A stretch of 64,000 nt of DNA from Patellaria atrata CBS 101060 (GCA_010093705.1 MU006110.1:265680-329679), one strand, 5' to 3'; positions 14,155-54,658 are shown, counted from the first letter of the stretch. The notes: generated by a model not told the origin, from the sequence alone. Program-made: numbers and translations.

Positions 14155-14167
14155 CAACTAGATAGAA

Positions 14168-19469: not shown

Positions 19470-19806
19470 TGTGAGATTGTGGGTAACTGAATGTAGTCGC
19501 TTGATTCTCCGTACAACTACGGATTCTATCTAGTGTTTATATAATGACAGACCACCTTATTGATTAACCCTTTGACGTCACGAAGCCTAGCTACGTAATC
19601 TCCAAATCAAGGCGAACATAACGATACTACCTACGTCAGATATAAAATAAGAGATGACATCAAAAGAGTGAGCTAATGTTATAGTTTTGGTGATACTTAA
19701 CCGATAAGTCGGAGCCGAGCATTTAGCTCTGAAGATCTCCAACACGAACTCCTGGAGATCCTGACGATCTTCCAACATAAGGCTATCGGGGATCAGCTAT
19801 CTGACA
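19470..19806 (-). repeat. 3' LTR of the copia element
   Basis: TGTGAG...CTGACA, adjacent to the PPT (CACCCTTCC on the + strand). Confidence 0.85.
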
Positions 19807-24476: not shown

Positions 24477-24810
24477 TGTGAGATTATGGATAACTGAATG
24501 TAGTCGCTTGATTTTTTTTATCTATCCACTAAAGGAATTTCTATATATACTGAAGAGCTACTAAGAGTCGTTGAGATAATTGTTGAAATAGAGGAGTCTG
24601 TTGAGGACGAAATAAATAATTGTTGAAGAGAGACTTTTTCGTGCTCCATGCTACTCCGTGGCTGACATCTGACAGATAGTTGATAGATCCACCAAAGCAC
24701 CGATACTCCAACAGCGCCACCATCTAACAATACTTAACTTATAAGTCGGAGCCGAGCACTTAGCTCTGAAAATTTCCAACATAAGGCTATCGGAGATTAG
24801 CCGTCTGACA
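24477..24810 (-). repeat. 5' LTR of the copia element
   Basis: TGTGAG...CTGACA, adjacent to the PBS; shares only its ends with 19470-19806. Confidence 0.85.
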
Positions 24811-25070
24811 GTTCTATATATAGATTCTAGGCGCTATTGGAAGAAAATTAAGGCATTAGTGGTCTTACGCGGTTATTCTATAATTAATGTAAGAATGAAG
24901 TTTGAAGAATCTTGTAAAAAACTTATGAAATATAGGAAACTGAAAACTAAAAGGGGAGGAGGTTAGCGAAGAGTGAAGACCGGAGAATATGCGGTGTATG
25001 ATTTGTGGCATATAAGCTACATAAAACGTGGAAAGAGACATGTCATCTCCGTTGTGGTCTAGTGGTTAGG
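24811..25070 (+). repeat. ~260-bp direct repeat of 37226-37489 (captain-proximal segment ending in a tRNA 5' half)
   Basis: Collinear high-identity match from GTTC(T/C)ATATATAGATTCTAGGCGCT to TCCGTTGTGGTCTAGTGGTTAGG. Confidence 0.92.
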
Positions 25071-25140
25071 ATTTGTCGCTCCCATTCGCACTGAAGCGAT
25101 TGGGCTCCGACAAGGCCGGAGTTGTTTTCCCGCAACGAAA
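25048..25140 (+). tRNA. Intron-containing tRNA-Glu-like pseudogene
   Basis: Acceptor TCCGTTG/CAACGAA, A-box TGGTCTAGTGG, anticodon stem TGTCG/CGACA around a ~22-nt intron. The loop reads CCC (CTC in the 37467 copy) and the T-loop is degenerate (GTTGTTTTC instead of GTTCGATTC). Confidence 0.7.
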
Positions 25141-25558
25141 AATTTATTTACACAGGTTTACTCCCTCAATTTTTACTTGGCTATCTCTCTTTTACTCCCG
25201 GGATGGAGTAAGTGTAGGCGGTCGGTGTTTTAATACTGTTGCTGTGTTTATTTTATGAGTTTTTATCCATGTATGAAGTAATCCGCAAGATTAGCCATCA
25301 TGGCCCGCTTCTTCCAAGGGGGAAAAGTAGTGGAATTTAATGTGACTGCTTATATTCTGTAGTCGGTTGGCGCGGAGTACTGATGTGTACGAGTTAGGAT
25401 TGTGTTTATGGTCCGTGCATGCACAGGCGAGGCAACCTAGGCAATAAACACAACTACGCCAGCGACAAGAAAGTTCAAGTCATCTACAATGAACCTCTTT
25501 ATTATTGCTTGCTCTCTGTTTTGTCGCCGTTACCCTTAACCTCTTCACCATCTCAGTC

Positions 25559-27154
25559 ATGGAGCGTGCAGACGCATGGTTGACAGTGACGTTCGCTGCA
25601 GGCAGCGATATCGAGCCACCGCCTTTGCCTAACATACCCGCAGACTACCTGGCGAAGCCTCGCAGGAAGCGCCCAACCTCTGCTCTTCTTCCCTCGTCCC
25701 ATCCTCGCATCATTTCTCTTCCTAAACGCAAACACACGACGCTCGCCGAGATTGACCTGCCCAACGAACCGCTCCCATCGCCGACCGAAGAGCCGTCTCC
25801 TTCCCGCTCCAAGCGTCAACGAGTAGTACGAATACCCAATATGAGGCATCAGTCTCAGTCACCGTCAAAACAGAAATACCCGGCAAGGAACAAAGCACAG
25901 GCTGGTGAAAATGCCTTCGATCTTGACGCCGCACCAAGACGACCTCGTCGTACCAACCCTAGACCTGCCAAAGTCTTGAGCGAGACAGTTATGCCAAGAC
26001 TGACGCCAGGCGTATCTGAAGGTGAAAATGAAGACTGGAACCAGCCAGATTCGTCCGTCACTGAATCAGCCGACTCGAGAACTTCAAAGCGATCCGTTAG
26101 CCCCACTAAGAGAATGGTTGACCTCCGGGTTGCAGACAAGAGGGTTTTACAAAAAAGCGTCCGTTCGCAATCGGATGTGCCGAGAGATGTGCAAGAACTC
26201 TATAGAAAGGTCCTAAGTTTAACCACATTTGCACGTAGCATTATTCCTAAGGGAATTGAGGTACGAGTTCTCTTCAACTTTGTCCACCCACTTACTCACA
26301 TTTAGTGATCAGGATGAAGTTGAAAATGCTTGCGGTGGTATTGAACCTTTTGATATTGTTTTGGTCTCGGAGCAAGAGGAAGATATTATAGACAAGGAAC
26401 GATTGCTGAATGAGCTCAAAGTTGTCAAGGACGTTCGGGATGCGACTTCATTCTGCAAAGCTAAGCACGTCCATGAGCCCACATGGAATGAGCGCGTTCA
26501 CAGTCGAATTCTGCAGCAAGCTGTGAAGCACCTCCCGGGCCTTGAATACCACAATATTACCACCGCACGGGTGATCAAGGGACTTGTGCCTGCCAACAAA
26601 TACGGTGAGGAGTTGAAGAAGAAGATAGTTGATTATGCCATCACGCTTCAAGATCCTCTTATCGCTGAAGAGCATATCACCCGCCGATTGGCCTCTTCAA
26701 CTGGAAGACTCTATAGAACGATCAACCCTTCAGATTACTCTCCGCTCTGTCACGAGCCTATTGCTGTTAGCATCGAGACCAAAACACCAGATGGCTCCAG
26801 AGAGAAAGCTTTAGTACAGCTTTCTATCTGGGTAACTGCTCACTTTAATCGCTTGCGTGCTCTTGCACCTGATCCCATCACCGTTACTCTTCCCCTAATC
26901 TTTGTTTCTGGCGAGCATTGGGAGCTGATGTTTGCACGGGACCTGGATGACTGTATTGTATGTGGGCCAATCGTTGTCTGCTTTGTCACCAACTAACACA
27001 GCTATTGCAGGAGATTATTGATGGTATGATTATCGGAAGTACGGGGACCATCCTTGGTTGCTACAAGATTCTTACTGCTTTACGTCACCTTTGCGGTTGG
27101 GCTTTATCAACATTTCAGCGTTGGTTCGTCGACAACGTTCTCACGCCGGAATGA
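25559..27154 (+). CDS. Fungal PD-(D/E)XK nuclease-like protein (PDDEXK_12-like), apparently intact; exons 25559-26260, 26313-26957, 27011-27154 (496 aa)
   Basis: In-frame GT-AG splicing; HEPTWNERVH, KIVDYAI, PIAVSIETK, QLSIW, LPLIFVSGEHW, IGSTGTILGCY. Confidence 0.85.
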
Positions 27155-27439
27155 AATGCATCCATTCGATACTCGCTCATCACTTTGCTACTCCAGCGGT
27201 GTCGCTGAGTCAGATCTTAAAACCACGATTTACTTACGGGTTCGTGCGAGATAGTCGAGATTTTCGCTTTCAGGTGTGTAACATCGTTGTTGTACAGTAG
27301 AGACGCTTCAGACTAACCGCATCCAGTTGTTAACTGTTTTAAAGGGGCCGGGTGGAAATAACACCTTTCGGCAGTTTCCACAAGGCTTCTCAAATTGGGA
27401 CCCAAGTCTTATACTGTCAGAACATCATGATGTATGCTG

Positions 27440-28572
27440 ATTAGGGTGACCAGTTATTGTTGTTCTTCAAGACAGATTTTCTGTAGTCTTCTGAAAACTA
27501 TTTGGCTATTAATCAATGTTCGGATAACTTGGGAGCTTGGATGTCCTTCTTCCTGCTCTTTTCTCTCCCTTGCCAAATCTTTTAGTACTGCAAAAATCTA
27601 TGCGTTCATGATCTCAATACCGTCTCCTATATCCCAGTTCCAGGAAGAATCTACGATATGTACCCCTCTACGGCTGGCGTAAAATTATATGCTTGCTCTT
27701 CTAAAGGCTGAACCGGTACGGGTCCGAATCATCGATGTATTGTGCACATCACAGACATCCAGCCCCTGCGATTCCCTAGGACATTGTTAAGGTATTAATA
27801 TTATCATTCTCTCCTTCACTCCATATGCTCCGTTATTATCGATTCAAATCTGTAAGGTTGGTAGCTGCACTGAAATATGGGGTAATATCACTTGATTGAT
27901 AATTGTAGAGACAAGTCCTATCCATATACTCAACAACGTCAACTGTATCAACTTAGAGGTTTGAACCGTACTGTTGGAGATACGTTTTGTACTCGCCAGA
28001 CGAGTGATCCAAAGCTATTAGTTAAACATTCCGCTCGAATGCAATACTGAACACTAACACGACCGCTACGCATGGAGTGCTTAGCTTTACGACTGCCATC
28101 CCACTCATGGCCGAACCTCACTTCTACCATACCGCAGTCGCTGCTTAACCCAACCGCTGTTTTTTCCCAACCATCGAGTAGAAAGCCTACTTAGGAACAA
28201 AGACCCCTAGAACCTATTATACTAAGGTTTTATCCTCCTTCACTAACTACCAACCCCCTTTTTCCATCTACGAGCGGCCCACCTAGCTTAAATTCTAGTC
28301 CGTCGACTATACACGACGTTCGGTTAAGCTGGAATAGTACCTCGCTTACTATAGATAATGTTGTACCGTACGAGCTTAGAGTGGAACCTATCCTTACCGT
28401 AATGAGGTGGGCGTACTTCCAAAGCGAACCGCTGGTGGGGCGTTAACATCTGTACCAGCAGTAAGAAGGGTTTGGACCACCTCATGTTAGGTCTCCCGGA
28501 GACGTGCTGTAGAGCGGTGCTTCCTAGTAGCGATAAATTAGGGTCCCCTTTTGCATTCTGACACTCCCGCAT
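27440..28572 (-). pseudogene. Heavily degraded gene relic containing an ankyrin repeat
   Basis: GSTALQ followed in a shifted frame by HEVVQTLLTAGTDVNAP (~28430-28530); many stops. Confidence 0.45.
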
Positions 28573-28964
28573 GATAACATGGAAATCCGGATTCTATTGC
28601 GCCCAGAAAAAGCTTTTCTGTAGATGCTTCTACTTTCGGACTCCGCATCGGTAGTAGGGGCCTAAGTGCATCAGTGCCAAAGGCTATGATTGATCACAAA
28701 TTGTAAAGATGGCAATAGATTGTAAGTTGAAGGAAAACTTGTGTATATAAGGAGGAGTATCCTCCAGCATTGCACATTAGAATAGTAAGTCAGTCAATAT
28801 ATTTTATCCTTTGCTTACAGTACCTAATCATCCATAGCTATACTCCCTCCCATCTTATTCTAAAAGAACAAAATACTTCTCTACGTGGCTTTATTCAGTA
28901 TTTGGCAACACGCTTCTAGAACTAAGTTTTAACGTGTATGAGAATGCTTCTTGAAGTTAGTCAT

Positions 28965-29951
28965 TCACTCTTCAGCTCTTGCAGCTAATCCGAGCTGAGA
29001 AAGCATTATACTTGGTCCCAGCTCCTTCAGATGATCCAGTTGAGTTTCTTTCATCAGCCATACAGAACCCATCATACCGGCAGTATTTGCTGTTGCACCA
29101 TGGTATTGAATGTTCCTGCGGGGGATTGAAATGATCCACTCTTTTGTTAACATAACGTTGTGAGAGCAGATCGGGTTCTCGTCCAATAACCCTAAGAGCT
29201 CTCTGGTTTGCTTAAGTAATCCTTCATAGACTTCAAACAGGTCGCTAGCGGTGATCGTTTTCTCTGAGTGTTGCTCCGAAAAGTATTTCAAAGAGTATCG
29301 GAATGGCACATTTTCCGGCTTCACTTGGTCCGTGTCGGGAAAGAAGCAAAAACCGCTCTTAGGATCAGGCATAGGGATGATATGCAGGTGTTTATGATCC
29401 CTGCTTGCCCCAGCTACTACAGTGCAGTTAAACATAGCATAATGAGGTGACTTCAAGCTATTCAGAACAGTCCATGCGGCATCGATGTCCTGGAGGGATA
29501 GCGGCTCATGTTGACGACGGTAAGAATCCGCCGTGAGGAGCAACAGATGCGGTCGGAAGAGAGGAAACTTGTTGATTACGAGTAAATGAGTATCTCTCAC
29601 AGTAGTGATAAGCAGGTCCGGGTGTGAATTAGCAATATCACTTCCCGGTCCGAAGCAAACCGGCCTGGAATCAACAGCATCCGGCAGTGTCTTCTCGGGA
29701 GATTTGAGCTCCTCTTCTGCCTGTGGCTTTCCGAGCAAAGAATGACTTATTCGGAACTCGAACTAGACATGCAGTTAGGCTCTGATCCTATTATTGTTTC
29801 TCGCTACCAGTATGTAAGCATGGGGGAAACACACAGGATATCCCCCGTCAACCAAATGTAATATGTTTGGAGGGCTGTAATTGATCACGCCCTGTGCGGC
29901 TAATGAATCGAATTTCAAGAGAATGCTGTCGTAGTCAACAGTCAACACCAT
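28965..29951 (-). CDS. Ap4A phosphorylase / ATP adenylyltransferase-like protein (Apa1/Apa2 family, HIT superfamily); exons 29951-29835 and 29762-28965
   Basis: FEFRISHSLLGKP, LLVINKFPLFRPHLLLLT, QHEPL, MFNCTVVAGASRDHKHLH, HNVMLTKEWIISIPRR, NTAGMMG. Confidence 0.85.
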
Positions 29952-31062
29952 ACTTGACAGAGAACGTGATGTTCGAGAATTTTAGAGAATCAAGATGGGA
30001 AGATGGGGGTTGTTGTTGTCGGACGAGGCTGCGAGACTGTTGGATGAGAGCAGCTTAGGCTCGCTTACGGATAAGTGTTTACTGACCGAGCTGAACGATG
30101 GGACGGAACTCTAGATTGGAACACTTCTCAGACCTTACGAGACCTATCTCCGACAGTACGGAAGGTACTACCGTTTCGGTATTGCTTATTGTATATAATG
30201 TAGTGATCTCTCAGTGTTTTGCCAATCAAGCGACATACTCCGTGTACCTGCAGATCAATTATTCTCCCAGAGTCCCGATAGAGGGGTTAGGTCCACCTCC
30301 CCCAACAACGGTTGGTTTACAGTATCGAGTCCAAGACATCCATTCTGCACAGAGTCTTTTTCCCAACTTTATCTTTTCATTTCAATCGTTGCGGTGTTTA
30401 TCTACGACACTGCGTATGCAGCCTACACATGTAGGGTTATGGCGCTACTCTTTTATCTACATAATCCTTTTCGTAGGGCAGTAATATGTCTACTGGGAGC
30501 TATCTTTGACTTGTGGTCAAACATTTGTGAACCCGAATGCAGCTGGATCACGGGCAGAGTTCCCCTATTCCCTCACAACCCCCAATTTCATGCGAGCTGA
30601 GACCAGAAAGGTGTACTTCGTCCCTTACTGGTTGATGACCGTCAGTATTACCCCTTGTTGTAACTTTGCGAGCATAACAACCGGGTCTAGGTTCTTTTTG
30701 GGGGGAAGACCAGTGACGAGGCTTCTATTGACACACATGTTTTCGCTTATCCTCTACTCTCTTTCTGCAACCCTCCTCTCTCACAACACCTTGGCAATTG
30801 AGCATTGGGGGCTAAAACTCTCCATCCGGTAATACACCCCCTGCGATACGCCTCCCGCGATACGCCTCTGCGATATCTTACGCGACTTTCCAGCAAGGAG
30901 AGATGAGGCTCAAGCGCGCGCAAAAATACATAAAGAGATGGGACGCGGGTAATCCTTCTCCATTATTAATTATCCTTGAATGTTCTATTTCTACTAACCA
31001 TTATCTGTTACCTTACTTTTCGATCTTTATCTCTCCATCTTTACTTTATCTAAAAGTTCATC

Positions 31063-33163
31063 ATGAGTACCTCAGAAAAAAAAGGGGTTGATGTCCAGAC
31101 AAGTGAAATAACCTTTTCTCGCCTAGAAGCATCGCTTGCGAAGGCTGAGGTGGTGCCACGACCGAACTCACGAGAAATGAAAGATGTCAATCGTCACGCG
31201 AAACCAGAAGATATAGATGTGAATGAACTTGACTTTGATTATGATCTTGATTCAAGTCATTACCCACTTGGGAACGTGCGATCTTTGCAGCAGGTTTTCA
31301 GTGCTGTTCAGCATCAACAGCACCTTTCCAAGAAAGAGAACTTTTCGGACTACACAGCAATTGAATGCTTCAGTATAACTAGCAGTGGTGGAGGTGAGCT
31401 ATATTGCTTAGCACGACAAATGTATTTCTCAGTCCATAACGAAAGACAGAATGGCAAAACTTAGACGAAGCGCGTCTTCGAGATTTCCTTGAGGTGTGAA
31501 ATGCCTTTTCTTTTCAAGATAAAAGCCTCTAGGTATGAACAACGTCATGATACCAACTTCCACACTTCTAGGCCACTGCAAAGGTAGAAGAACCACGCAT
31601 CTCACCCACTGCCAGTATGAATCGGAATGGAAGGAGGATGCTGCTCTTGTAAGGCCCTCATGCTCTCACACATTTTTGGGTCTAACCATCTAGCCTTGTT
31701 CCGTTAACGCCAACACCTCACACGTCTTTTGGAAATCGAATTCCGATGACTCAAGCGAGTGTATCTCATCTCTTCCACACGTTAGGGATTCATTCATTGT
31801 TCCTTTTGAATTTACTGGGCCGACCAGATTACTGGGCACCCCAGACGCACTGGGAAACAGCCGAAGGAGGAGATTTTGTAGCATGCGGTAAGTTGATATA
31901 TACTTCTCCAGTTCAAGGATATGGGTACTAAGAGAACCTCTATGCTAGACTTTTTCTGCCAGCACCCGCGATGGAACCTGCAGGTGCAAGGAGCACCGCT
32001 ATCGGTCTATATGCGTTTTGATGCTACTAGGGAGTTGATAACATATATCGTTTCGCACAAAGTAGGAGACACAAGCGTCAAAACGCTTAAGAATATTATC
32101 GACATCTCGATGCGAACGGCTTCTGGGAGTACAAAGAATGTTATGTTCCTAGATGATCCGTTTGACTTCCACACCATTCTTTCCGTATTATCATTTGAAG
32201 CGTCCAAATTTCACGTAAAAAGATTTCAACGGTTCATGTGGACACAGGTAAGTGATTGCATCAAACAAAATTAGTCCTTCAGATGACATGGGCTAATCAC
32301 GCTTTACCACACAGATCAACAAAGTTGACGACCATCTCGGAGGCCTCGAAAACAGTGATAGAGCTAAGCTGCGAGATTTGACGAAAGAGCTTCAGATTAT
32401 CTCTCAGAATGCCGATTCACACATTGGTAACGCGGATGTGGCGATTATAACAGCGAGGGGGATCCGAAGTGCCCATGCTAGGATCCATGTTGCCATTTCC
32501 AGCTCTGCATCAACATACCAGCGAGTAACAGACTCCATAGAATACATTATTAAGTCCATGGAAAAACAGAAGATTTGGTTCCTGAACTACAAGAACCGTA
32601 AAGACAGCACCATGAGTCTTGTGTATAACCTTGTCACTCAAGAAGACGCTGCCAACAACATCCGGCTTTCGCATGAGATGAAGCGCGATAGTACAAGTAT
32701 GAATGCAATTGCTGGTCTTACTATGGTATTCCTACCTGGGACATTCACAGCGGTAAATCCAACATATCTCTCCTAGTATAAAAATCGACGCTAATATACA
32801 TAGACTGTCCTGGGCGCGGGAATTTTCTCCGCGGTAGCTGGGACCAACAATGTCCGCGTTTCGGGTATCTGGTGGCTCTGGATTGTGCTGACCGTCCCAC
32901 TCACTCTTATCGTGATGGCTTGTTGGTGGTACTATAAGTATACAAAGGAAAGACCGTATAAGGCCCAAATGGCTGCGATAGCTGCCGCAAAGCGAAAAGA
33001 AGAGGCAGGCGATACTGAAGAACAAATGGGAAAGAGCAGCGCAGTTTCCTTTCTTAATGAAGTTAGAGCGGCCCGGCCCATCGGTAATTTGTCATTAAGG
33101 GGCTGGTCTTTTGCGAGTTCAAGGAAGAAATCTGCAGGTGAAAGTCTTCAAGATAGAGTCTAG
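31063..33163 (+). CDS. Multi-exon CorA-like fungal protein with two C-terminal transmembrane helices
   Basis: Helical stalk ending NLVTQEDAANNIRLSHEMKRDSTSMNAIAGLTMVFLPGTF, then a second TM (WWLWIVLTVPLTLIVMACWW); several GT-AG introns. Confidence 0.75.
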
Positions 33164-33989
33164 AAAAAAGCGAAATTCGGTTCGATATCAAAGCAATCGT
33201 TACAACCGTCTCTTATTGTAACAAGACCTTAATACCGAGAGGTATATGTCGCAACCAGGTCTGCATACTCATCGCATCCTACCTATATGCAGCATCAATC
33301 TATTCTTTGAATACGGATTCAATGGCTCTATCTATGAATAGTCTCTAGTAACTATATTCTAGCTATCCAGCTATCTAGTCAAGATGCTATTTGCACTCAA
33401 GACAAAAGCGAGATAGGAAAGGTTTCAGTGCTAAGTTAAGTTTGAAGACATTCTGCAGCGTGGTCAACAATTCTTCTTCGGTATTAAAAACTACTTAAAG
33501 AATACTTTGCTTATTTTTAGACGTTTGGGGAAGATTTGATTATACTGCAGACTTGCCACTCCTCATACATTTGATGATTATAATACTTTGTTATAATTTT
33601 TGTACTACTTACGCAAACCTCCATTACTTAAAAGAAAAATCAATATCTCTTACCAAAAGAATGGAATTTTTAAAATTAAAAAAATTAAAAAATTAAAAGT
33701 ATCGTCACAGTCACGACTTCTAGCAAAATGATGGCCGAGCCGCGCCACCGGACACGCCATTACGGGAGCATCCTTTCTGCGGCTATGAAATAGAGAAAGT
33801 AGCGAGAGTTGATAACACAGTTGGCGTTGTAAATCATTGCCCTCGGTTGTGGCGATGCTACCGAATTGAGGTTCCCTCACCATGTGCTGTTACTTGGGGT
33901 ACAGTGCGTGAAGCTGGGGTAATACCCAACTTGCGGCTCGGCATCATCCCAGCCCTCACGTCTCTCACCAGAGATCCACAGCTTCTATC

Positions 33990-34462
33990 ATGACGGCGCA
34001 TACGTCTAAACTCTCTATCGAAAAGTGGCTTGAGACGTTTTCCAATGAACTTCCCGATCCTCTTTTGACACCTGCGCAACTGTTTACACCGTCGTCATTA
34101 TGCTGGAGTCCGTCGACCTCCACTTTGTCAGTCAAACGAAAGCGGAAGAGAAACATGCCCGAAGATCGATCATAGAGCTCTAAACAGCCCCAACGGAGGT
34201 CGCACGATGACGATGACATATTTCGCAACGATGGTGCTTCAGGTGTAGGAATAACAGTATTATTGGAGAGGACAAAGCTATCAGGGCCATCGCATTTTGC
34301 GGGATCAAGTCCGAAGCGCGGAGCAAGACTTACTGCCGCCGATACGGGAGATATGTATGGAGATTTCAAGCTGTTGCGATAGCGAAAAGAGCAGCTGAGT
34401 TTGCGTCTGACGAGTATTGGTCGTGGCTGAATTACGAAGTATTGACGCCTTTGCCTTAGTTG
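33990..34462 (+). pseudogene. Possible 5' remnant of another PD-(D/E)XK-like gene, cut by a solo LTR
   Basis: SIEKWL start, KRKRK and SPKR.. organisation resemble the N-termini of 8793 and 25559; contains stops. Confidence 0.35.
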
Positions 34463-34660
34463 TGATAAAATCCACACAGGTATGAGCTAAGGTAGTAGAT
34501 AGAAGGGTAAGAGTGTTCATTGATTGTCTACTATCTGGAGTGGGTGCCTGTGCTATCTTATAGTATTGCCTGCTTAACCATCTCACTTATCCTGGTCCCC
34601 AACCATCTGATATCCAGCCATCTGATATCCAGCCACCTTGCGTGACCCTCAATTTCACCA
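34463..34660. mobile_element. Solo LTR (family C)
   Basis: Reverse complement of 14168-14365; TSD AGTTG. Confidence 0.9.
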
Positions 34661-34999
34661 AGTTGTGATGGCTGAAATCCGTACTAAGAAAGAAGTCAAA
34701 CGTTCCGCCGTTATAGTTGCACGTCTCAGGACTAATTTTAGGCTTAATTGCTGAGGATCTGTAGGTGCGTTTATTGTGCTTTTCTGCTCTTGTTCTCCCG
34801 TGGATTTATCTTATCGGGTTCTCAGCGCATCCGTCGGTCGTGATGTGCACACGGCTCCCTTTGGTGAATACGCTTCCACGCCAAACTTCTCCCTCGTCCC
34901 TGCCCATGGAAACTGACGATATCGCTTCGCAGCTGCTCCAGGTGCCGGCCTGAATAACTATACTATAAATTGTTATTACTCCATAGAATAGTCTAAGGT

Positions 35000-37044
35000 T
35001 TTCTAGGTGTGAGTAAGAGTGCGCCTCCCAGATTATTTTATTATCAATATATCCTGCGCAACTGTAGCAGAAGTACTGTCGATCCGGTATTGTTAAATCG
35101 TTCGGAATATAGTGCTCGGTTATTAAGTGGGCAATACGCTTTTGCCGAGCATATAAGAGTAAGTGCTTACTCTTTCGCGCTTTTCCGGCGCTATCATAGC
35201 TTGATTAGTTTTCACGTGCTATTGGCGTGTAGGAGAGAAATTTCACCTTGCCAAATCCGTATCGCAGTTGAAACAATTACCCTTATCATTAGGCTTCGCC
35301 TCAGGGTACCATACACCTCCGTTTAAGGGAGAAGACATCACTATCATCGGTTCGAGTATAGACCTCTCAGTAACAAGAGGAGCCCCTTTTAAGTTATATA
35401 AGGCATCGATGAGCTTAGCCCGTTAAGGCTCGTATCTCAAAACTGTCTGCATAAGTATATGTTCCGTTCGTGAAGGGAGAAGTATATCCGAAGCTTCGAT
35501 ATCCCCATCAAACTGGTGGTCATCTTGAACCATATCCGACTGAGGGATGCGATTGAAATGGGCTGAACGAGCTTCACGGAACTGGTCTCGGCGCATGCGA
35601 CTAATATCTGCACGCCTCCTTTCGGCGGTGGTCACGGTAGGTATCGCGATAGGCCTACGTCTCGGGGCCGTTAGGTCGGCGCCGTGGGGTGGCGGTGCGT
35701 TAATATCCCTCTCCAGAAGCATTGTTCTTGAGAAATCGAAAAGTTTTGCGCGCTGAGGCAAACCACGCATGATCGATTGGCCATCCACTACCGACTTTCG
35801 GGAAATATAGGCCTGAAAAGTGTCATCATTTATATGTCCCATGCGTTATCTCCTTTGGGCTGTAGTTGCGGCTTAATCAAGCTTATTTGCGAAACCACGT
35901 CTAAAGTAGTATGCGGATATAGGGTCTTTATATCCTGCTCTCTACCCAAGGGCTCGGAGTTGCCCTCCACAGCTTTTATGCTTCAAAATCTGCGTCTCTG
36001 ATATAAGGCCGGACGGTGTGATAGCTCGTATAATAGGAATATCCCTCATTCAGGTTTAGCTTCTAAGGTAATTGCGGCTCGGGAGGCCGGAACCTAGATC
36101 GTATTAAAGGCCGCTAGATTCGGAAGCGCAGTATAAGCTTAATCCGCAATCGCTAGAGCTAAGAAATGTGTGAAGACGCAAGTCGCTTTATCGGCTATTA
36201 GAGTTAGAGTAATCTCTAGGCTACTTAAGTTATTAGCTTATAGGCATTTACGAACTATGTTTAGGATCTAGCAAGATTACCTATCTAGTTTGAACCTACG
36301 ACCCTTCTAATTGCGAACTACTACACTTATAGTCCAAATTGCTCCTTTGGACGTAGTTATAGACTTAGTGAGAGTGATATCTTTATAATATAAACCCTCA
36401 TTACTCTCTAGCCAGCATCTCGACTCGATTAGTTCGCCAGGGCGGAGGCCTAAATCACTAAGTAGAAGAATTATAAAGTGAAGCTGGATCCGACAGCGAG
36501 GGTGTACGTACTCGAAGGTATCGAATATCCATAAATACTTGAGTAGATCCTTCGTGACGGGATACGATGCCATAGGTTTCGGTTAACATTTACTTAATAC
36601 CCCTAATCTTTCTCGAATATCTATGTGAATATAGTCGGTGATTAAGTCGATTTCTTTCCGTCCAAATTTATAGTTATGCTCAAGGAAAAGGAGTAGTTAT
36701 ATCTCTCTCCATACCCTTTCCAAAGTACGGATGGTGACTTTCTATTCGATTTGCCCCGGGTATTTCGAACCTAGAAATGGAGAAAAGCCTTTATTTATGA
36801 AAGTGCAGGAACTTCCGAGAGAGGTACATCTATATAGCGCGTGTTCGGTAGATATTAAATAGCATATCTATTCTATATATTAGCTATAGAAACTATAACT
36901 TAGAACAAGAATATACTATTGAAATCGACGGCGAAGAAGGTCGAACTTCTCCTTTAAGTAAGGACGAATAACGGGCTATACATTATCGTCGTTCGTAGCT
37001 TCCGTCCTGAGGATCTCGTTGATAAAATTATCCTCGTCGTCCAT
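35000..37044 (-). pseudogene. DUF3435-type tyrosine recombinase (Starship captain-like), inactivated by RIP-like stops
   Basis: Ordered catalytic signature GLRPGE (R), RN*KGRR (K), YYFRRGFAN (R), RMGH (H), FQAYIS (Y), then VDGQS..GLPQR and WYPEAKP..GNCFNC; FEYVHPRCRIQL upstream; ATG at 37044; many TAA/TAG stops; 3' end approximate. Confidence 0.85.
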
Positions 37045-37225
37045 GTTAGGTAACACACTTGAGCAGATGAATAGAGAAAGAAACGATAGAAAGGAGTAAA
37101 ATAAAGAGAACTTCAACGAAATTTATCAGAATATAAGGTAAGAAAGTTAAGGAGACGAGGAAACGCGATAGAGAGATATAGCGAGGGCGAAGTAGGCACC
37201 CCTATCCTTCCTGAGAATTGCTCTA

Positions 37226-37504
37226 GTTCCATATATAGATTCTAGGCGCTGTTTCAAGAAAATTAAGGCATTAGTGGTCTTACGCGGTTATTCTATAATT
37301 AATGTAAGAATGAAGTTTAAAGAATCGTATAAAAAACTTATGAAATACGAGAAACTGAAAACTAAAAGGGGAGGAGGTTGGTGAAGAGCGAAGACCGGAG
37401 AATATGCGGCGTATGATTTGTTAGTGGGATATAAGCTACATAAAACTTGGAAAGAAGCATGTTATATCCGTTGTGGTCTAGTGGTTAGGTCTTTTCACTC
37501 TCAC
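37226..37504 (+). repeat. Captain-upstream segment (repeat of 24811-25070) ending in a tRNA-Glu(CTC)-like 5' half at 37467-37504
   Basis: 23 nt identical to 25048-25070, then TCTTTTCA-CTCTCAC; no 3' half of a tRNA follows. Confidence 0.85.
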
Positions 37505-37940
37505 CTCCTATGCCGGGATCGGTGTTCTAAACTTTTAAAAACCAAAACCAGGAATTTCAAACGATAAAACATGAATCTAAGAGTATCGAAATAAATCAAC
37601 CAGAATATTGGTAAAAGTGCCACTAACACCTATAGAGTCTGTTCTTATGGGCGAATCAACCCAATCCTCCTAAGGCATTCATGGCATCATGCATTGCCAC
37701 AACTTCGTAAAGGGGCGAACCAGAATAACTCATTCCCTGGCATATATTGTAACAGGCTAGAGCCTAGTGGTATGAGCGCGCCCTGCATCCGAAGATCAGC
37801 CAGTAATATTTTCCTCAAACCTGCCTTCAGACTCTTCTCTTCTTCTTTATCTTGATTGTAGATAGCATCTGGACTAGATAGTTGGAACACAATTACTAGA
37901 GGCCGCTCACATACAATCAAGATCATTCAAGTTACTAAGG

Positions 37941-39095
37941 ATGGAACAGAATAACGAGCCTAATACTTTAAGCATCCTACTCGCAGAGATACAAAACCTT
38001 AGGAGCGAGTGTACTGAGCTACGTCGTCAATTTAACGAACGACTCCCTTCCCTAGAGCATCAGCAAACGACTTCCCAATTAGATCCCACAACAACCCCTG
38101 AATCTGATACCCCTCCCCCCTTCGCCGCGATCACACCTGTCGTCACGAAGCCGCGCTATAGCCTCCCCCATCCTCCGAAGTTTAGCGGTGACAAGTCACA
38201 ATGGAGGGGCTGGAAGTTAGAGATGGAAGGCAAGATAGAAGAAGACGCTATAGCCATTGGGTCCCTCCAAGCCCAATTGCGTTATATCTATATGCACCTT
38301 GAGAAAACCGCTAAGACAAACACGACAACATTTTATGAGTTGGAAGTTAAAAAGGATTTACCGAACCCTTATCGGTTACTTGAACGACTTGAAATCCTCT
38401 ATGGAGAGCGGAACCGTAAACAAAAAGCCATCCAAAACCTTCATTCTATTCGCCAACGGGATAACGAGACATTTATGGCTTTCTATCCCCGCTTCGAGAA
38501 AGAGATAGCTAATGCCGATGCTGAAGATTGGGATGATGACTCAAAGATATCCTATTTGCGTAATGCGCTGAGTGAGAGGATGAAGGATAAGCTTGTGGGT
38601 ATTTTAGGAAAGAAAAAGGATACCTATATGGAATTTGCTCAGAGATGTGAAGAAATCAGCAATGATATGGAACTATTTGGGCAGTGGACCAAGGTTAGGA
38701 GTAGTAAAAGTGCGCAGACCATAGATACTGAGACACCACATCGAGACATGATGGAATGGGAACCCACCCCATCAGTATCTACTTTAACCCAAGTCAATAG
38801 CACACGCACCCGTAATAACAAGGATGGATACCCATCTAAAAGACCTGAAGACCAAGCGCTTATAGGAAAACGGGCAAAGTGGGTTGATCAGAGAGAGATA
38901 AATGCTCGTATCCGGGAAAACCGTTGCTTCCGTTGTGGTAGAGATGATTGCAGGGTTAGCACCTACCCACTAGCAGCACCAATTCGACCAAAACAATCTA
39001 CTCATGTTAGCACAGCGGTATCTCCTCGGCCCACTATCACCCAAGCCATGGTGGAGGAAGATGATGATAACACTAAGGAAGACGCAAGCCAATAG
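37941..39095 (+). CDS. Gypsy gag
   Basis: LPHPPKFSGD, retrotransposon gag core, MEWEPT and a CFRCG knuckle remnant. Confidence 0.9.
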   Translation: MEQNNEPNTLSILLAEIQNLRSECTELRRQFNERLPSLEHQQTTSQLDPTTTPESDTPPPFAAITPVVTKPRYSLPHPPKFSGDKSQWRGWKLEMEGKIEEDAIAIGSLQAQLRYIYMHLEKTAKTNTTTFYELEVKKDLPNPYRLLERLEILYGERNRKQKAIQNLHSIRQRDNETFMAFYPRFEKEIANADAEDWDDDSKISYLRNALSERMKDKLVGILGKKKDTYMEFAQRCEEISNDMELFGQWTKVRSSKSAQTIDTETPHRDMMEWEPTPSVSTLTQVNSTRTRNNKDGYPSKRPEDQALIGKRAKWVDQREINARIRENRCFRCGRDDCRVSTYPLAAPIRPKQSTHVSTAVSPRPTITQAMVEEDDDNTKEDASQ

Positions 39096-42000
39096 GGACG
39101 CGCGGCAGCTCGAAGAGAATGGAAAGAAGTTGGAGAAGCAAAGATGGATGGAGACCCCTTTTTAGTGGATATTAGACTCAATGGAACCAAGTTTGTTACA
39201 GGACTCATTAACTCTGGCTGTCTTTGCTACGCTGCAATTAGTGAACAACTTTTCAAATCTTTAAAGCTGCCTCATCTCCGGATTGCACCAAGAAAGCTAG
39301 AAGAAGCTGCTGGAAAGAACGCAAGGCCCTCTACAGTCTTAGATACTGTGACCTATGCTTCAATCGATATAGATGGCCACCAGCAAAAACGTATCTTTTT
39401 CTATGTTATACCAGGCCTTAATCACGAAGTGATCCTTGGAAATCCTTGGTTAGAAGATACCAATTCAATCATATCCGCAAGGAAAGGGTGCTTAGACATT
39501 GGAATATCTAATACCCGTGTCTGGAACCGCGCTAAGAAGTCATACCAGCCACCCCAACTCAAAGCAAAACAAGTCATGGCCACAGTATTTATGGCAGACG
39601 TAAGAAGGAATAGAAGAGAAGCTAAGCAAAGGGGAATTAATATCTATACTAAAGTGCATGCTATCTCTATAGCAGATATTGATAAAGCCTTAAAACCACG
39701 TCAGAGGTTAGACCCTAAGACAAAATTACCACCTCAATATTTTCCTTGGCTGAAGGTATTCGACCATTTCCTAGCAGAGAAGCTACCTCCTTGTCGGAAA
39801 GGTGTTGATTTGCATATTGAGATTGAAAAGGATCAGGATAGTAATGAGAAGGCGGTCCCGTGGGGCCCACTTTATGGTATGGGTCGAGAAGAATTACTTG
39901 TTTTAAGGAAGACTCTTACTGAATTATTAGGGAAGGACTTTATTAGAGCTAGCAACTCACCCGCTGCGGCACCAGTGCTAATGGTAAAGAAGCCTAATGG
40001 AGGTATCCGATTCTATGTTGATTATCGTGGACTGAATAACATTATAAAGAAAGATCGCTATCCCTTACCATTATTCAGCGAAACCCTAAGGAACGTTGCA
40101 AAGGCTCGATGGTTTACTAAACTCGACGTTATTGCCGCTTTTCATAAGATACGAATAGCCGAAGGGGAAGAATGGAAAACCGCTTTCCGGACAAGATATG
40201 GACTTTTCGAGTGGAAAGTTGTTCCCTTTGGATTAACTGGAGCACCTGCGGCATTTCAAAGATACCTGAATAGCATTCTTCAAGATTATCTAGACGATTT
40301 TGTCTCAGCATATATAGATAATATTCTTATCTACTCATCAGGAACCCTTAAAGACCACCGAAATAAAGTTGGAAAGATTCTTCAACGGCTAATGGACGCC
40401 GGACTACAGATCGATATTGAAAAGTGCGAATTTGAGACTAAAAGGGTCAAATATCTTGGGTTTATTATTGAAGCTGAAACTGGGATCCGCGTTGACCCTG
40501 AAAAGATTGTTGCAATACGGGAGTGGGCCACACCGTCATCCGTCAAGACAGTTCGAGGGTTTATAGGGTTTGCAAACTTCTATCGGACTTTTATACCTGA
40601 GTTCTCGGATATTGCAAGGCCTCTTACAGATCTTACAAAGAGGGACGTCCCCTTTCGATGGGATAAGCCTTGTGATGAAGCATTTAAAAAGATAAAGGAG
40701 TTACTTATCACCGCACCTATCTTAGCTCACTTTGACCCAGATATGGAGACACTAATAGAAGCCGACTCGTCTAGTTATGCTACTAGTGGTTTACTTTTGC
40801 AGAAAGATAAGGCAGGTATCTAGAAACCCGTTGCGTATCATTCAAAAAAGCATTCTTCTACTGAAGCCAATTACCCAATTCATGATAAGGAATTACTTGC
40901 TATTATAAGGTGCTTAGAAGCCTGGGAACCGGAGCTACATATGGTTAAGCACTTCACCATTTTGACTGATCATAAGAATTTAAGGTACTTCTACACAGAG
41001 AAGCAGCTATCCGAGAGACAAGTACGATGGTCAGAGTTTCTTGCAAGATTTAATTTCACTCTGGAATGGAAACCAGGAACAAGTATGGGTAAACCTGATG
41101 CGCTATCACGTCGTGAATAGGACCTTCCAAATAACTATAACGACGAAAGGCTACGATCACGTTTTATACAACTCTTCCAGAACAAACATCTTAAGAGCAC
41201 TAGAGTCCTAAATATAAATGCTCTATCAGCTAAAGTTGACTTCTCTAAAGAAGTACCACTCTTTGAGAACGAAGAGATGCAACAGCTCTGGCACCAAAGC
41301 CGATAGGAAGACCAGCTCTACTAGGAGTTGACAGTTCTAGTGGCAAATAAAGGACGAGACCTACCAACAACGCTTCAAAAGGAGAAGTCTGTAAGTATTA
41401 CCGAGTGTACTTTAGAGGATAGAGGCTTGCTACAATTTCGTGGAAGAATCTGGATTCCTGGTAGTGAACCATTGCGTACTCGTATAATCCAAAACATTCA
41501 CGACTCTCACATTACTGGACACCCTAGAAGAGACCTTACTTATACCATTCTATCAAGGCAATTCTTCTGGCCAGGTGCTGCAAGCAATGTTCGACAGTTC
41601 GTCCGGAATTGTGAAGTATGTGGAAGAAACACCATTTGGAGAGAGTCGAAGAAAGGGCTCCTCAAGCCACTACCGATACCAGAACGCATTTGGGGAGAGA
41701 TCTCAATTGATTTTATCACCGACTTACCACCGTCTGGACGGGACAATGCTACAAACTGCATGGTAGTCACTGATCGACTAACGAAAGGAGTTGAGTTAGA
41801 AAGTATGCACGATATCTCCTCTGAAAAGGTTGCACAAAGACTCTTTGAACGCCACTACCCTGTTCATGGTATCCCCAACGCAATCACAAGCGATAGAGGC
41901 CCACAGTTCGTTAGTGACCTATGGAGACATTTCTGCACGCTTTTGAAGATTAAGCAGCGCTTATCAACTGCATATCATCCTCAGACGGATGGCGCAACAG

Positions 42001-42797
42001 AACGAATGAACCAAGAGATTGAGAAGATGATTCGCATTTGGGCAACTTACATGCAGGAGAATTGGTCGGAACTACTACCGATTGTCATGGGAGGAATCAA
42101 TAATCGAGAGTCTTCATCGACTGGACTGAGCCCCTTCTTCTTCATGCATGGATATCATAATGAGCCAATCCAACTTGTAGAAGAACGCACTATCCGGGAT
42201 CGAACAAGGAAAGATGGTGAGGTGCTAGCAGAAGACTTTATTAAAAGACTTCAAGATGCAACAGAATGGGCTCAAGCTGCCATAGCGATGGCACAAGAAA
42301 AGCAACAACACTATGCTAATAAAACTAGAATAGCTTCCCCGAGATATAAAGAAGGCGATTGGGTGTTTTTGAACTTGAAGAATGTCAAAACCCCAAGACC
42401 GTCAAAGAAGCTGGATTGGTTGCACTCGAAGTATCAAGTTGTTAAGCAGGTGAATTCTCACTCATACCAACTCAACGTCCCTGGAAAGATCCACCCAGTA
42501 TTCCATGTAGACCTACTACATCCAGTACCAAGTGATCCCCTACCATCACAACAAGTTAGTGATTCTCAGCCGGGCCCACTATTGATAGATGGGGAACAGG
42601 TATGGCTGGTAGAACGAATTATAGATGAAAGACTTACAAGAGCTGGAAGGAAAAATATCAAGGAAGCTAAGGTGAAATGGGTTGACTACGTAGAGCCAAC
42701 TTGGGAACCAGTTGAAAATGTCCGCAAGACAGATGCCTGGAAGCTATGGGTCAAAATTCAAAAACGTCAAAAGGCCAGGAATATAGACAAATCTTAG
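39096..42797 (+). pseudogene. Gypsy pol (PR-RT-RH-IN-chromodomain) with premature TAG stops
   Basis: Protease LINSG (D>N), RT YIDN (D>N), stops at ~40821, 41118, 41304 and 41322; integrase H..GH..C..C, SIDF, SDRG, TERMN; chromodomain VERII...VKWVDY.EPTWEP. Confidence 0.92.
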
Positions 42798-43239
42798 AGA
42801 GAGAGAGGAGGGGGGTAATGTAACAGGCTAGAGCCTAGTGGTATGAGCGCGCCCTGCATCCGAAGATCAGCCAGTAATATTTTCCTCAAACCTGCCTTCA
42901 GACTCTTCTCTTCTTCTTTATCTTGATTGTAGATAGCATCTGGACTAGATAGTTGGAACACAATTACTAGAGGCCGCTCACATATATTTCTTGGGTTTGA
43001 GTCACTACGATCGTTACAACACTTCTGTGGAGTAATCTATAATGCCTCTATGCCGTGAGCCGCAGAAGTATTCGAAAAGGGGCATCTTATGGCAAAGTAG
43101 AGATGTTGATCAGGAAGCACCCTATTTTCTATATCACTATGGCACTTCCTATGACATCTGATTACTTGTTTAGGAGGTTTATAAATTGAGAGATACCGTA
43201 GATGAGTCGTAGTTCTTTGTCAAGCCTTAACCTTACCCC

Positions 43240-43888
43240 CCTATCATCGATCCCAAAATATCTAAAGAGGACTCGAGCAGCATTCTTTCAGCTGAAGAGT
43301 GGAGCAGGCTTCTTCAAGTCATACTCCAAGAGAATTGGAAAGGATACTGAAGGGGAATGTTTTGGAGACTGCAGGTTTATCCGAAGCCCAAGACACCTGA
43401 TTCTTCACTGCAAACATTACTCCAAGGAACGCAAAATCATGGAGAAGCGGCTAAAGTCAAGAATGACATTAACAAAACTCTTTTGTACAGAGAAGGGGAA
43501 AGAAGTACTCTTCCAATACTTACACAAAACGCAAATCTCAACAGTTAAATGGCTGCTACATAAAAGAGAAATAAATGAAGAAGAACAAGAAACATACTAA
43601 AAATGATAGCATACAGGGGAAAAGCTAGATTGATTATAACGCAGGGAATTGAAGAGCAAAGGATACAGTGGAGTTGGTTCAGTTTTTCTAATGCTTGGAT
43701 TAGACTGCAAAGTTTGGACAACTAGAGAGCTTCGCTCCTCAGACACTCTCACTAGACATATTATTGCCCTAGGATAGGGATTTATGTAGATAGAAGAGCA
43801 GCGCCATAGCCCAATAGGCTACATGCGCAGTATTGTAGATAATGCAATACAATGGATTAAGAAAAAAAATAAAAAAAATAAAAAAAAT
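43240..43888 (+). mobile_element. 5'-truncated LINE copy with an A-rich tail
   Basis: Near-identical to the reverse complement of 7208-7835; tail (AAAAAAAT)n. Confidence 0.88.
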
Positions 43889-45271: not shown

Positions 45272-46900
45272 GGCCTTCCTCGCAAAGAGAGCCTTTTTTT
45301 TATGGTTAAGCCAACCGTATCTATGGTTATTTTATCTCTCATGAAGAATGGAATCCTTCCCTACTTTGGGTAGTTCTTGTTACGACGTGCTTCTCGTCTA
45401 CATCACGTGATCTCCCTACCACTTCCACTGACTGCGCCTCTCTATGATCTGTGGCTGTAACAAAATCTTTTCTTAAGAGTTGAATTCTCTTATTATATTA
45501 AGTAAATAGTTGAATTAATCTAGCGACTTTTACGCCACACTAAGACCTTTCGATTACCTTACTGTACTTATCCAGCTAGTTAACTCAGCCACTTCGAGTT
45601 GGGTAGAAATTCAAGAGTTGGGTTAAGTTGAGTCATATAACATGGTTCCGCCCTGTGCGAGGTCTATTAAGTATCTTTTATTATCCAGAAGCCCCATTAC
45701 TTATTTCCTCGTTCGCAAGTGTTTTACGCCAAAACGTTGGCGCAAACTGATCCAGGAAGGTGGGGTAGCGTCTAAACATCTTGTGTCGGGCCTCCATTTT
45801 AAGGCCAACTACAGACAAGACAACACCACTTCGACCTTTGATCTCGAACAGGGCCGAGTTATTACATGCTGTATATGCGGTCAAGCAGCACTTGAAGGGG
45901 TATGTTGTGTATATGGCCTTACTGCCAGCGATGTGCCGAGGCTGACTTGTATTTAAGCTTGATACTCACAACTCGACCTCCCTCTCGAATACGCAGATTG
46001 CGAAACTGCAATAGAGATGAAAAAGGATGTCACAAACATCACGGATGATTGCGAGCTTGAGGGGGAAGCAACAGCACTTGTAAGAGGTTCATAACACCTG
46101 GCAGTCGATATGCGCTAACACTTCATAGCTTGACACGCAAAAGTTGATATCGCTCGAGGCTGGCCTAGAAAGGACGGGGAGTGGCACATATGAAGTTGCA
46201 CCGCCCGAAATCTGCGCAGTATTGGTCATGGAACGGAGCGGAGATGGAGCCGTCAGGGTTACAGGTGGTAGTGAGGTAGATGATAATATTGTGACCAGTC
46301 CAACAAAGTCGCCTCGCAAGTGGATTATCATAGTGAAGGAGGGGCAGACATGTGTAATACTTGGACGGCCTGGATTTCGCTACTTCTATCAAAGATAGGT
46401 AATTATAAAGCTTCTTGCCTAATTACTGTGACGTTCTTTAGTATCTCGTTGCAAGACCTGTGAGAGAGTTCTAACTTGATATCTGGTTCCCCTGACGACT
46501 TAAATGTTAATGTTCCAGATAGCAATGGAAATGCATTATATAGGCACGACAGTTCCACTGTTTTGCAACCTCCGTCGTATCTTAACAAGAAGTCAAATAA
46601 GTCCTTAGTGTGCATTTTTACTTTGAAGCCTTTCCTTCTGTCTGAAAGCAGGCCATCTAAATTTGATCAGCCTTGATCTGATGACTCCTCGAATGTATAT
46701 ATTCATGAGCTCGTTTTACTAATTACTTAACTTTAATGATGATTTCTCATTTAATCCACCTTTAGAGTCTATCTTCTGCCGGCTCATAACAGGGGTCGGA
46801 GGTTCGACTCCTTTCTTTCTCCAGAGTAAAAATAATTTTCGAAGGGTTTGAGACCTGTATTCTGTCGTAGATGTTGGCAAAAGAAAAGATAGGATGGGCG

Positions 46901-46980
46901 AGGTGAGATGGGGTGAAATAGGGTGAGATAGGGTGAGATAGGGTGAGATGGAGTGAGATGGGGTGAGATAGGGTGAGATA
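46901..46980 (+). repeat. 10-bp minisatellite (GGGTGAGATA)n, ~8 units
   Basis: Directly visible tandem units. Confidence 0.9.
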
Positions 46981-47130
46981 GATAGACAAGCAAGTTTTAG
47001 CAGGAAAGTATCCTAAGGTAGAAGTAAGTGTATCACGCTAACCTTATAGATATCGTACTTCCAAGCCGCAACAATAAACCGATTGCATGTTACATTATAT
47101 TAGTAAGGGTGGGTTATGAACGGCGGTATA

Positions 47131-47210
47131 AGATTGGGTGAGATTGTGTGAGATTGTGTGAGATTGTGTGAGATTGGGTGAGATTGGGTGAGATCGGGTG
47201 AGATTGGGTG
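47131..47210 (+). repeat. 10-bp minisatellite (AGATTG(G/T)GTG)n, 8 units
   Basis: Directly visible; same GTGAGAT core as 46901-46980. Confidence 0.9.
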
Positions 47211-48135
47211 ACGGACTTCCTACTAGGATTGACATTGCACCTGGTTGAATAACAATGATACAGTAAATGCACTGGTAATCAGAACATACTGATTGTATAC
47301 AGTGTGATTCATATTAAACATAACTTACCTATGTTGCAGGCGAATGGCTCACATCTTGAAATATCACAACCATTGAATATAAAAGGGGCGCTGCGTGAAA
47401 ATAATAAGCTTCATTAACCAACTACTCCGCGAAAGAAGGCTCAGACTACACTTACTTCAGCCGAAAAACTAAAAAAGCACAGTACGTTTCATTCTATTCG
47501 TTTAGTAAATTCAGAACGTTTACTAATTTTTCCCTGTCTAAGATGTGTGAGAAGACAGTGTCCCTGAAAAAATGGGCGTGTGGCGATGAGGAGGAAGAAG
47601 AAGTCAAATTTGAATCTTGCGGCGATTTGAGCAAACCTGGTCATACAGTTAAAATTAACACTCTGGGCTCTAAACGCGTTGGAAGTAAATGCGGGAAGTT
47701 CGGCTGCCGCAACCCCTAATGGAATCAATAATCCGTGAGCACCTTCTCTCCAGAACGGTTCTCAACGCTAACAATCGCAAAGAGAGATCTGGATACCTTA
47801 CTTGGTGGGGTGATAGGATTGAGCGATTGGGGTACTTTTACGCATGGAAGACATGCAAGGCCACATTCATTAGCAAGCGATTATTGGACGTTATTGTTCA
47901 GCTTGTAGTCACTCTCCTTTAAAGATATAAATGCTATAAATAATGTAGTATTTATCGCCTAAATTCTCATGCTCTTGTGACTTTCTTACCATCTCGGAAA
48001 AGGCTAAATGGGTTGGTATGATGCGCACGTGATTAGTGAGACGTTCCAACATCGCATTCAAAACCGCAACTCTCTTCCTCATTAACTACCACAAACCATT
48101 CCATTCTTAAACACAAAGTACTCTCACACCACAGA

Positions 48136-54485: not shown

Positions 54486-54658
54486 CGACTGTCCTCCCTG
54501 CTAGCGCGGGCGACACAATGTAACACACTATTGTTCTAACCGCTGCTTCAACCTATGAGTATGCTTACGCATCTTGCTTTAACTATAACACTACACTATG
54601 ACTATGAAATCCATTAGGAAGTAGCATTAACTTTATATTAGGAATTGATATATCATGC

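Follow-up and report, generated by a model that had tools for sequence, protein, structure and literature searches.

Bacterial genomic islands, integrative and conjugative elements and phages integrate into tRNA genes through a tyrosine integrase and carry the 3′ part of the tRNA gene with them. Here we analyse a locus of Patellaria atrata CBS 101060 at which a pseudogene of a DUF3435 (captain-type) tyrosine recombinase lies beside a duplicated block of sequence that ends inside a tRNA-Glu-like gene. The comparisons cover a single stretch of 64,000 nt, hereafter the window, and coordinates are counted from its start. In our tentative reading, with a probability of about 0.38, a DUF3435 (Starship/Crypton-like) element, now dead, left its captain-proximal end at 34839–37489, together with the upstream region and nt 1–23 of a tRNA-Glu gene that it had carried. 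Such an element would resemble the bacterial tRNA islands in its tyrosine recombinase, in an exchange inside the tRNA and in a carried part of the target that restores a whole gene at one junction. It would differ from them in carrying the upstream region and the 5′ part (the A-box side) instead of the 3′ part, in its eukaryotic host and in the DUF3435 family of its recombinase.

The closest fungal systems are the Starships of the Voyager, Enterprise and Arwing families, which, in the parts of the sources covered here, insert into 5S ribosomal DNA (rDNA) (Gluck-Thaler et al., 2022; Gluck-Thaler and Vogan, 2024). In those parts, a scan of Starship insertion sites with tRNAscan assigns 23% to 5S rDNA and 26% to AT-rich sequence (Gluck-Thaler and Vogan, 2024), and tRNA genes are named only as targets of bacterial elements (Gluck-Thaler et al., 2022). 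In the other Starship papers covered here, tRNA appears only in methods or unrelated text, and a tRNA gene as a Starship target was not found. The initial annotation of the locus had treated insertion of Starships into tRNA genes as established; the targets given in this literature, as far as covered here, are 5S rDNA and AT-rich or transposable element (TE) sequence, and the use of a tRNA would be new. Like the 5S-rDNA Starships as described there, the proposed element would have a DUF3435 recombinase at the 5′ end reading inward, a multicopy RNA polymerase III (Pol III) target and a junction inside RNA-coding sequence. The same descriptions also set it apart: its target would be a tRNA gene, its shared block measures 264 nt and includes upstream flank whereas theirs are 6–16-bp direct repeats, and their insertions are said to disrupt the 5S gene, while the element here would rebuild its target. 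The relic also differs from them in being dead and in lacking a demonstrated cargo or distal end.

A compact unit of ~2.6 kb that is marked by repeat-induced point mutation (RIP), and that comprises a recombinase and its upstream end without terminal inverted repeats, may also recall fungal Cryptons; unlike Cryptons, the recombinase has its Pfam match in DUF3435, the captain family. We know of no Cryptons that target tRNA genes or carry target sequence. Among animal elements, the Dada DNA transposons of fish are described, in the part of the source covered here, as inserting into tRNA and small nuclear RNA genes (PMC8869645). On that description Dada elements, as the proposed element would, insert specifically into small RNA genes that exist in many copies and offer a safe haven; they differ from it in transposase class and in hosts.

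The recombinase relic and the duplicated block

The initial annotation had described a fragmented tyrosine recombinase with catalytic residues in the order R-K-R-H-Y and had called for a profile check of its captain identity; both points are borne out. The Pfam profile PF11917 (DUF3435) matches the stop-free piece 35423–35845(−) at 27.9 bits (profile positions 223–314), above the cut-off of 25.8 that places it in the family, and matches a second stop-free piece, 36307–36582(−), at 16.2 bits (positions 7–56; same cut-off). Five intact relatives (P0003, P0005, P0007, P0016 and P0020) align by tblastn over 36824 to 34839 in three frames. In-frame stops within the high-scoring segment pairs number 4+4 for P0020 and 7+4 for P0003, and overall there are at least eight stops and at least two frame changes. 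Relics of the R..K..R..H..Y motifs follow one another in order on the minus strand: GLRPGE (36450–36433), RN*KG (36321–36295), LG*RAGY (35950–35924), FRRG (35911–35885) and MGH..AYIS (35845–35801). Since its frame is broken by these stops and frame changes, the relic encodes no active enzyme, and the catalytic motifs do not lie in an open frame. A cysteine/histidine-rich C-terminal region is traceable to ~34839, and homology ends ~100–300 residues short of the C-termini of the relatives. A search for the last conserved block of the relatives found nothing, and the gene is therefore probably 3′-truncated as well. It is the sole full DUF3435 copy within the window (Table 1).

Table 1. Coordinates of the features discussed, counted from the start of the window
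Feature	Coordinates	Strand	Evidence or remark
Copia-type long terminal repeat (LTR) retrotransposon, abutting copy A	19472–24810	−	Pfam RVT_2, SH3_retrovirus, gag_pre-integrs
Repeat copy A: upstream-type sequence (24811–25047) and tRNA nt 1–23 (25048–25070)	24811–25070	+	Left edge is the end of the copia LTR
tRNA-like gene A, 93 nt, full-length	25048–25140	+	Rfam, ARAGORN -ps90, sequence
Scrap of ~40 residues from a second, different DUF3435 gene	27647–27775	+	tblastn, E 0.002 window-wide; between the repeat copies
DUF3435 (captain-type) tyrosine recombinase pseudogene	34839–37044	−	Pfam, tblastn, RIP indices, phmmer
Spacer of 181 bp from recombinase ATG to copy B	37045–37225	.	No partner elsewhere in the window
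Repeat copy B, 264 nt: 241 nt of upstream-type sequence (37226–37466) and tRNA-Glu-like nt 1–23 (37467–37489)	37226–37489	+	Self-BLAST, alignment, pattern search
Diverged, intron-less tRNA-like continuation of copy B, ~nt 24–55, loop CTCTCA	37490–37521	+	
Ty3/gypsy-type LTR retrotransposon	37748–42982	+	LTRs of ~165 bp, 99% identical

A phmmer search of 1.84 billion representative proteins, with a read-through of 35423–36058 (X at stops) as the query, returned 215 proteins at E ≤ 0.001, of which 58 reached E ≤ 1e-10, all of those with a source name being fungal. The best intact relative, P0003 (448 aa), is 47% identical and comes from a Dothideomycete. A word-indexed search for proteins related to the read-through piece and longer than it gave 873 candidates, none at E ≤ 0.001. 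A paralogue with ~90% identity exists (P0152, 153 aa, from a Dothideomycete), which clusters with the 115-aa model P0002 of the window, and a contig from one public run (X1) differs from the recombinase of the window at 23 of 243 nt, mostly by G/C where the window has A/T. The other contigs of this low-coverage run, which contains 5% of the sampled words, were patchy when aligned at 80% likeness and apparently come from the same strain; they contained no joints and were uninformative on the element ends. Pattern scans of metagenomes (with alignment A4) and of viral contigs matched 35 and 36 patterns, respectively, with none confirmed in either. The second DUF3435 scrap is closest to the Pleosporales-type relatives P0007/P0156 and adjoins a strongly RIP-like stretch, 28001–28500 (TpA/ApT 1.92).

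The tRNA piece starts at 37467(+), 423 bp upstream of the recombinase ATG (37044, minus strand), in agreement with the ~420 bp given for it initially. From the ATG to the end of tRNA nt 23 (junction 37489/37490) the distance is 445 bp and the gene reads away from the junction, that is, inward, which would be a Starship-type layout if the junction is the end of the element. The 23-mer 37467–37489(+) occurs twice in the window, where no occurrence is expected, and is identical to the start of the tRNA-like gene at 25048; no third copy was found in the window, even allowing for RIP-type changes and three mismatches. The two occurrences belong to a longer repeat, for which self-BLAST aligns 24810–25084 with 37225–37503 at 89.6% identity. 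Copy A lies 12.4 kb to the left of copy B and its block runs on into the full-length tRNA-like gene A. Both copies of the block point the same way and the one at A leads into a whole tRNA-like gene, an arrangement that would fit a tRNA attachment-site (att) layout if A and B are the two ends of one element.

The two copies do not remain alike throughout the tRNA. The alignment of 24806–25084 has 250 matches and 8 gap columns; of its 25 mismatches, 17 are transitions, which run in both directions. The ~92% identity ends after tRNA nt 23: mismatches number 20 in ~260 positions of the upstream region and nt 1–23 versus 12 in 32 over nt 24–55 (Fisher p 2e-5; copy A read without its 22-nt insert and in a fixed register). 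The continuation of copy B is still tRNA-like, with 37490–37521 matching copy A at 20 of 32 positions, a score reached by only 3e-5 of window positions. Over nt 38–55 the match is 11/18 without the insert of A (p ~0.001) and poorer, 13/28, with it (p ~0.009). The drop in identity after nt 23, together with the tRNA-like continuation of B, identifies the A/B junction as a recombination breakpoint inside the tRNA. To judge from the sequences, one 5′ block (241 nt plus nt 1–23) leads into tRNA-type 3′ parts that differ between the copies, complete and intron-containing in A and intron-less, decayed and truncated in B. Because one block stands on two unlike 3′ parts, copy B is a recombinant and not simply half a tRNA, and the initial description of a tRNA piece with no 3′ half gives way to one in which a diverged tRNA-like stretch runs on to ~nt 55.

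Against Rfam RF00005, which has a gathering score of 29, gene A reaches only 22.8 bits (E 0.007, 151 nt searched), in an alignment that spans the full model (1–71) and places a 25-nt insertion in the anticodon loop. Default ARAGORN reports no tRNA genes in the window; gene A is found only at relaxed stringency and is called Gly(CCC). We take its body to be Glu-type from the acceptor and D-arm sequence. The loop reads CTCCCA, versus CTCTCA in copy B, and the 22-nt insert (25085–25106) is intron-like, lies directly after nt 37 and pairs with the anticodon. The position after nt 37 is the canonical site of eukaryotic tRNA introns. With a decayed T loop/B box and one acceptor-stem mismatch, gene A is probably a pseudogene. 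Copy B alone gave no tRNA match with RF00005 or with ARAGORN in default or relaxed mode, and its continuation is without a pairing anticodon stem and loses its tRNA likeness in the T arm, at ~nt 55. A and B both fall below the gathering score of the covariance model and are relics. A search of the window for the missing tRNA-Glu 3′ half by B-box motif gave two matches versus 1.7 expected, and blastn-short with the tRNA of copy A gave chance 10–12-mers only. A tRNA-derived short interspersed nuclear element (SINE) and an LTR primer-binding site were considered as sources of the tRNA piece and rejected, since the conserved part includes sequence upstream of the tRNA start and the piece is the 5′ end of the tRNA, not the 3′ end.

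Proposed captain-made junctions and their alternatives

One block on two tRNA 3′ parts is what would be expected from an element that carries part of its target. The outer end of such an element would consist of the upstream region and nt 1–23 of a tRNA-Glu gene, including part of the A box, and strand exchange by its recombinase would fall in the first 23 nt of tRNA-Glu-type genes of the genome. On every insertion the element-borne block would become fused to the 3′ part of the particular tRNA gene struck, such that the target would be rebuilt from the upstream and A-box half of the element and the B-box half of the genome. Copies A and B would mark the captain side of two insertions, each in a different tRNA gene. 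At A (25070/25071) the block would have been fused to an intron-containing 3′ part, the element body being destroyed later by a copia insertion and copia–copia recombination; at B (37489/37490) it would have been fused to an intron-less 3′ part, now decayed and truncated, with the recombinase gene still attached. RIP would then have inactivated the repeated parts.

We infer an element-borne block, junctions made by the recombinase and tRNA-Glu as a preferred target, going beyond the direct observations of a recombinase relic, a duplicated block, a breakpoint inside the tRNA and a pattern of RIP. The reading as a captain-proximal end draws on the DUF3435 identity and motif order, the recurring block, the mosaic breakpoint and the Starship-like geometry. 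It draws further on the RIP-marked unit formed by captain and block, on the divergence of the captain paralogue (~90% identity), which resembles that of copies A and B, and on the probable loss of DNA beside copy A through copia. If correct, it would mean that the safe-haven strategy of captains takes in another class of Pol III genes besides 5S rDNA, with the target restored, and would represent a convergence with bacterial islands down to the logic of the att site, as their mirror-image eukaryotic counterpart; it would also supply a sharply defined recombination site for studies of captain specificity. The stronger proposition, that this is the first tRNA-gene-targeting Starship-type element, that it exchanges within nt 1–23 of tRNA-Glu and that each insertion rebuilds a transcribable tRNA gene, we regard as somewhat less likely.

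RIP indices flag 35001–35500 and 36001–37500, and the flagging ends at ~37500, near the tRNA piece. Captain and block thus behave as one repeated unit of ~2.6 kb at the time when RIP acted. Between copies A and B lie a PDDEXK_12 nuclease gene (25493–26993), an Ap4A phosphorylase gene (28968–29762, minus strand), several open reading frames (ORFs) without an assigned function, scraps of long interspersed nuclear elements (LINEs) and a 198-bp repeat. This interior is without RIP flags over 25501–27500, 28501–30000 and 30501–35000, and is flagged only in the bins 28001–28500 and 30001–30500, both of which hold other repeats. The whole 12.4-kb segment 25071–37489 might be a single element with A and B as attL and attR. 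Its integration at a tRNA-Glu locus would have involved exchange within the long block common to both, whether carried out by the recombinase or through ordinary homologous recombination of a circle in which the locus had been captured beforehand. Blocks in direct repeat, a captain at one end reading inward and other genes inside would be the canonical integrated topology of an element carrying attP. We consider this improbable, however: a 264-nt block with locus-specific upstream DNA is unlike the 2–16-bp direct repeats of Starships and would require prior capture, the complete tRNA sits at the captain-distal end, RIP marks the captain and, apart from the two bins, not the interior, and the segment is small for a Starship and contains unrelated TE scraps.

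The copia element that abuts copy A has LTRs that align only at their termini (222 matches, 60 mismatches and 104 gap columns) and flanks that differ (AATAA versus GTTCT), that is, no target-site duplication. From these two features it is probably a recombinant of two copia copies, and the intervening DNA that would have flanked copy A on the left is gone. It is accordingly the copia insertion, and not an element end, that bounds the A/B homology on that side, and removal of the left side of A by the same recombination would account for the lack of a captain there. The initial annotation had itself named, as a case that would tell against its proposal, a 265-bp segment found beside tRNA genes with no captain. 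Half of that case is seen here, as the other copy adjoins a full-length tRNA-like gene and a copia LTR; its weight is reduced in that the copia rearrangement appears to have erased the left side of A.

Several observations weigh against the reading as the end of a tRNA-targeting element. The link between captain and block is seen once only and no distal end was found in the window. The captain-proximal, target-carrying end proposed initially is partly supported, by the identity of the recombinase, the geometry, the block on two 3′ parts and the RIP unit. Short direct repeats are not significant (two 9-mers versus ~2 expected), and there are no convincing terminal inverted repeats in 24700–37800; of the short direct repeats (2–16 bp) or terminal inverted repeats of Starships neither is seen, the sole flanking repeat being the 264–283-nt block. 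No cargo is in evidence, the interior being largely without RIP and its genes ordinary-looking (PDDEXK_12, Ap4A phosphorylase), and the cargo that had been supposed to extend leftward is not borne out, as 25.5–35 kb is mostly without a RIP signature and offers no distal end. No captain adjoins copy A, only the copia LTR, and tblastn across the window found no further DUF3435 to the left of the copia element. Since the 3′ part of B is truncated and without a pairing anticodon stem, at least one extra event is required. No tRNA, 5S or block-like sequence lies near the recombinase relative in any of ten metagenomic loci (scan with alignment A5); these relatives are all distant, only ~30–55% identical to the recombinase of the window in tblastx segments, and their lack of a tRNA is thus weak evidence. 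The tRNAscan-based surveys of Starship targets, in the parts covered here, report 5S rDNA and AT-rich sites only (Gluck-Thaler and Vogan, 2024).

A further point of this kind is the TATA-like element ~30–35 nt before the tRNA start of copy A, as in a native tRNA flank; the block may be ordinary tRNA flank and not element DNA. It could then be the native flank and start of a tRNA-Glu gene (A), with B a partial local duplicate to which the dead recombinase is merely adjacent. Ectopic recombination or gene conversion involving another tRNA-Glu paralogue would have altered the 3′ part of B before its truncation, in a RIP-affected graveyard where transposons accumulate around tRNA genes. Such captain-independent duplication is almost as likely as the reading that we favour. 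It is consistent with a full-length tRNA-like gene at A that lacks a captain and has a TATA-like element ~30 nt upstream, with the dense repeat content of the window (copia, gypsy, LINE 3′ ends, a DDE transposase and others), and with the second, unrelated DUF3435 scrap 2.5 kb from A, which suggests that captain relics gather here; the lack of a distal end or cargo in the window, and of a tRNA target in the portion of the Starship literature covered, also agrees with it. However, it requires three separate events, namely duplication, truncation and an exchange whose end point falls exactly within the tRNA, and leaves unexplained both the Starship-like distance and orientation of the duplicate relative to the captain start and the treatment of captain and block by RIP as one unit.

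The block beside the captain at B and the native-looking tRNA at A would also be accounted for by transduction of flanking DNA. Here a captain element lying upstream of gene A would have moved by way of a cryptic end within the tRNA and taken ~264 nt of flank along to B, with no targeting of tRNA. Against this, the flank of B past nt 23 is tRNA-like beyond chance, unlike a random new site, and no captain remains at the donor site; we give it slightly less credence than the single 12.4-kb element. All of these readings need several events. The relic is a single dead copy in one genome, which hints at a tRNA-targeting mobile element and does not prove one. The recombinase belongs to the captain family by its profile score; from the data at hand, the element itself cannot be classed as a Starship.

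Neighbouring elements and other repeats

To the right of copy B, 258 bp of unique sequence are followed by the Ty3/gypsy-type element, ~250 unique bases and then a 5′-truncated LINE with a poly(A) tract. The gypsy element looks intact, with long open gag, protease–reverse transcriptase and integrase ORFs, and is flanked by a perfect 5-bp duplication, TATAT (37743–37747 and 42983–42987). It appears young and is possibly active, unlike its RIP-affected neighbours. As a cause of the tRNA truncation it was rejected in favour of a later insertion, since 258 bp separate its LTR from the nt 23 junction of the tRNA and the element has a TATAT duplication of its own. Several 3′ ends of one LINE family lie at 43243–43888 (poly(A) 43860–43888), 7209–7837, 14031–14157 and 30397–30499.

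The 198-bp repeat is present at 14168–14365, 34463–34660 and 54287–54490, two copies being 98.5% identical and inverted and the third 73% identical. One copy lies just past the 3′ end of the recombinase relic, and the repeat is a candidate miniature inverted-repeat transposable element (MITE) or solo LTR. A separate inverted pair of 266 bp with 95.9% identity (6270–6535 and 12394–12659) brackets ~6.4 kb containing a fragmented PDDEXK_12 gene (9106–10126) and LINE scraps; the region so bracketed may be a DNA-transposon-like unit. The PDDEXK_12 gene at 25493–26993 is better preserved.

A second tRNA relic within this nest of TEs, at 46770–46825, is Met-like by eye, with a CTCATAA loop, a good B-box-like GGTTCGACTCC and a terminal CCA. 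It has no recognisable 5′ half and no Rfam tRNA match, and the B-box motif match at 46801 belongs to it. Just to the right of the relic are two minisatellite arrays with 10-bp units, 46892–46991 and 47117–47226 (GGTGAGATRG/GTGAGATTG). Towards the right end of the window, Patatin, NB-ARC and TPR_10/TPR_12 ORFs stand in a row (54957–61718, minus strand), an arrangement typical of a fungal NOD-like receptor (NLR), and a tandem array of ~126-bp repeats occupies 54957–56386 at the TPR end, in part extending past it.

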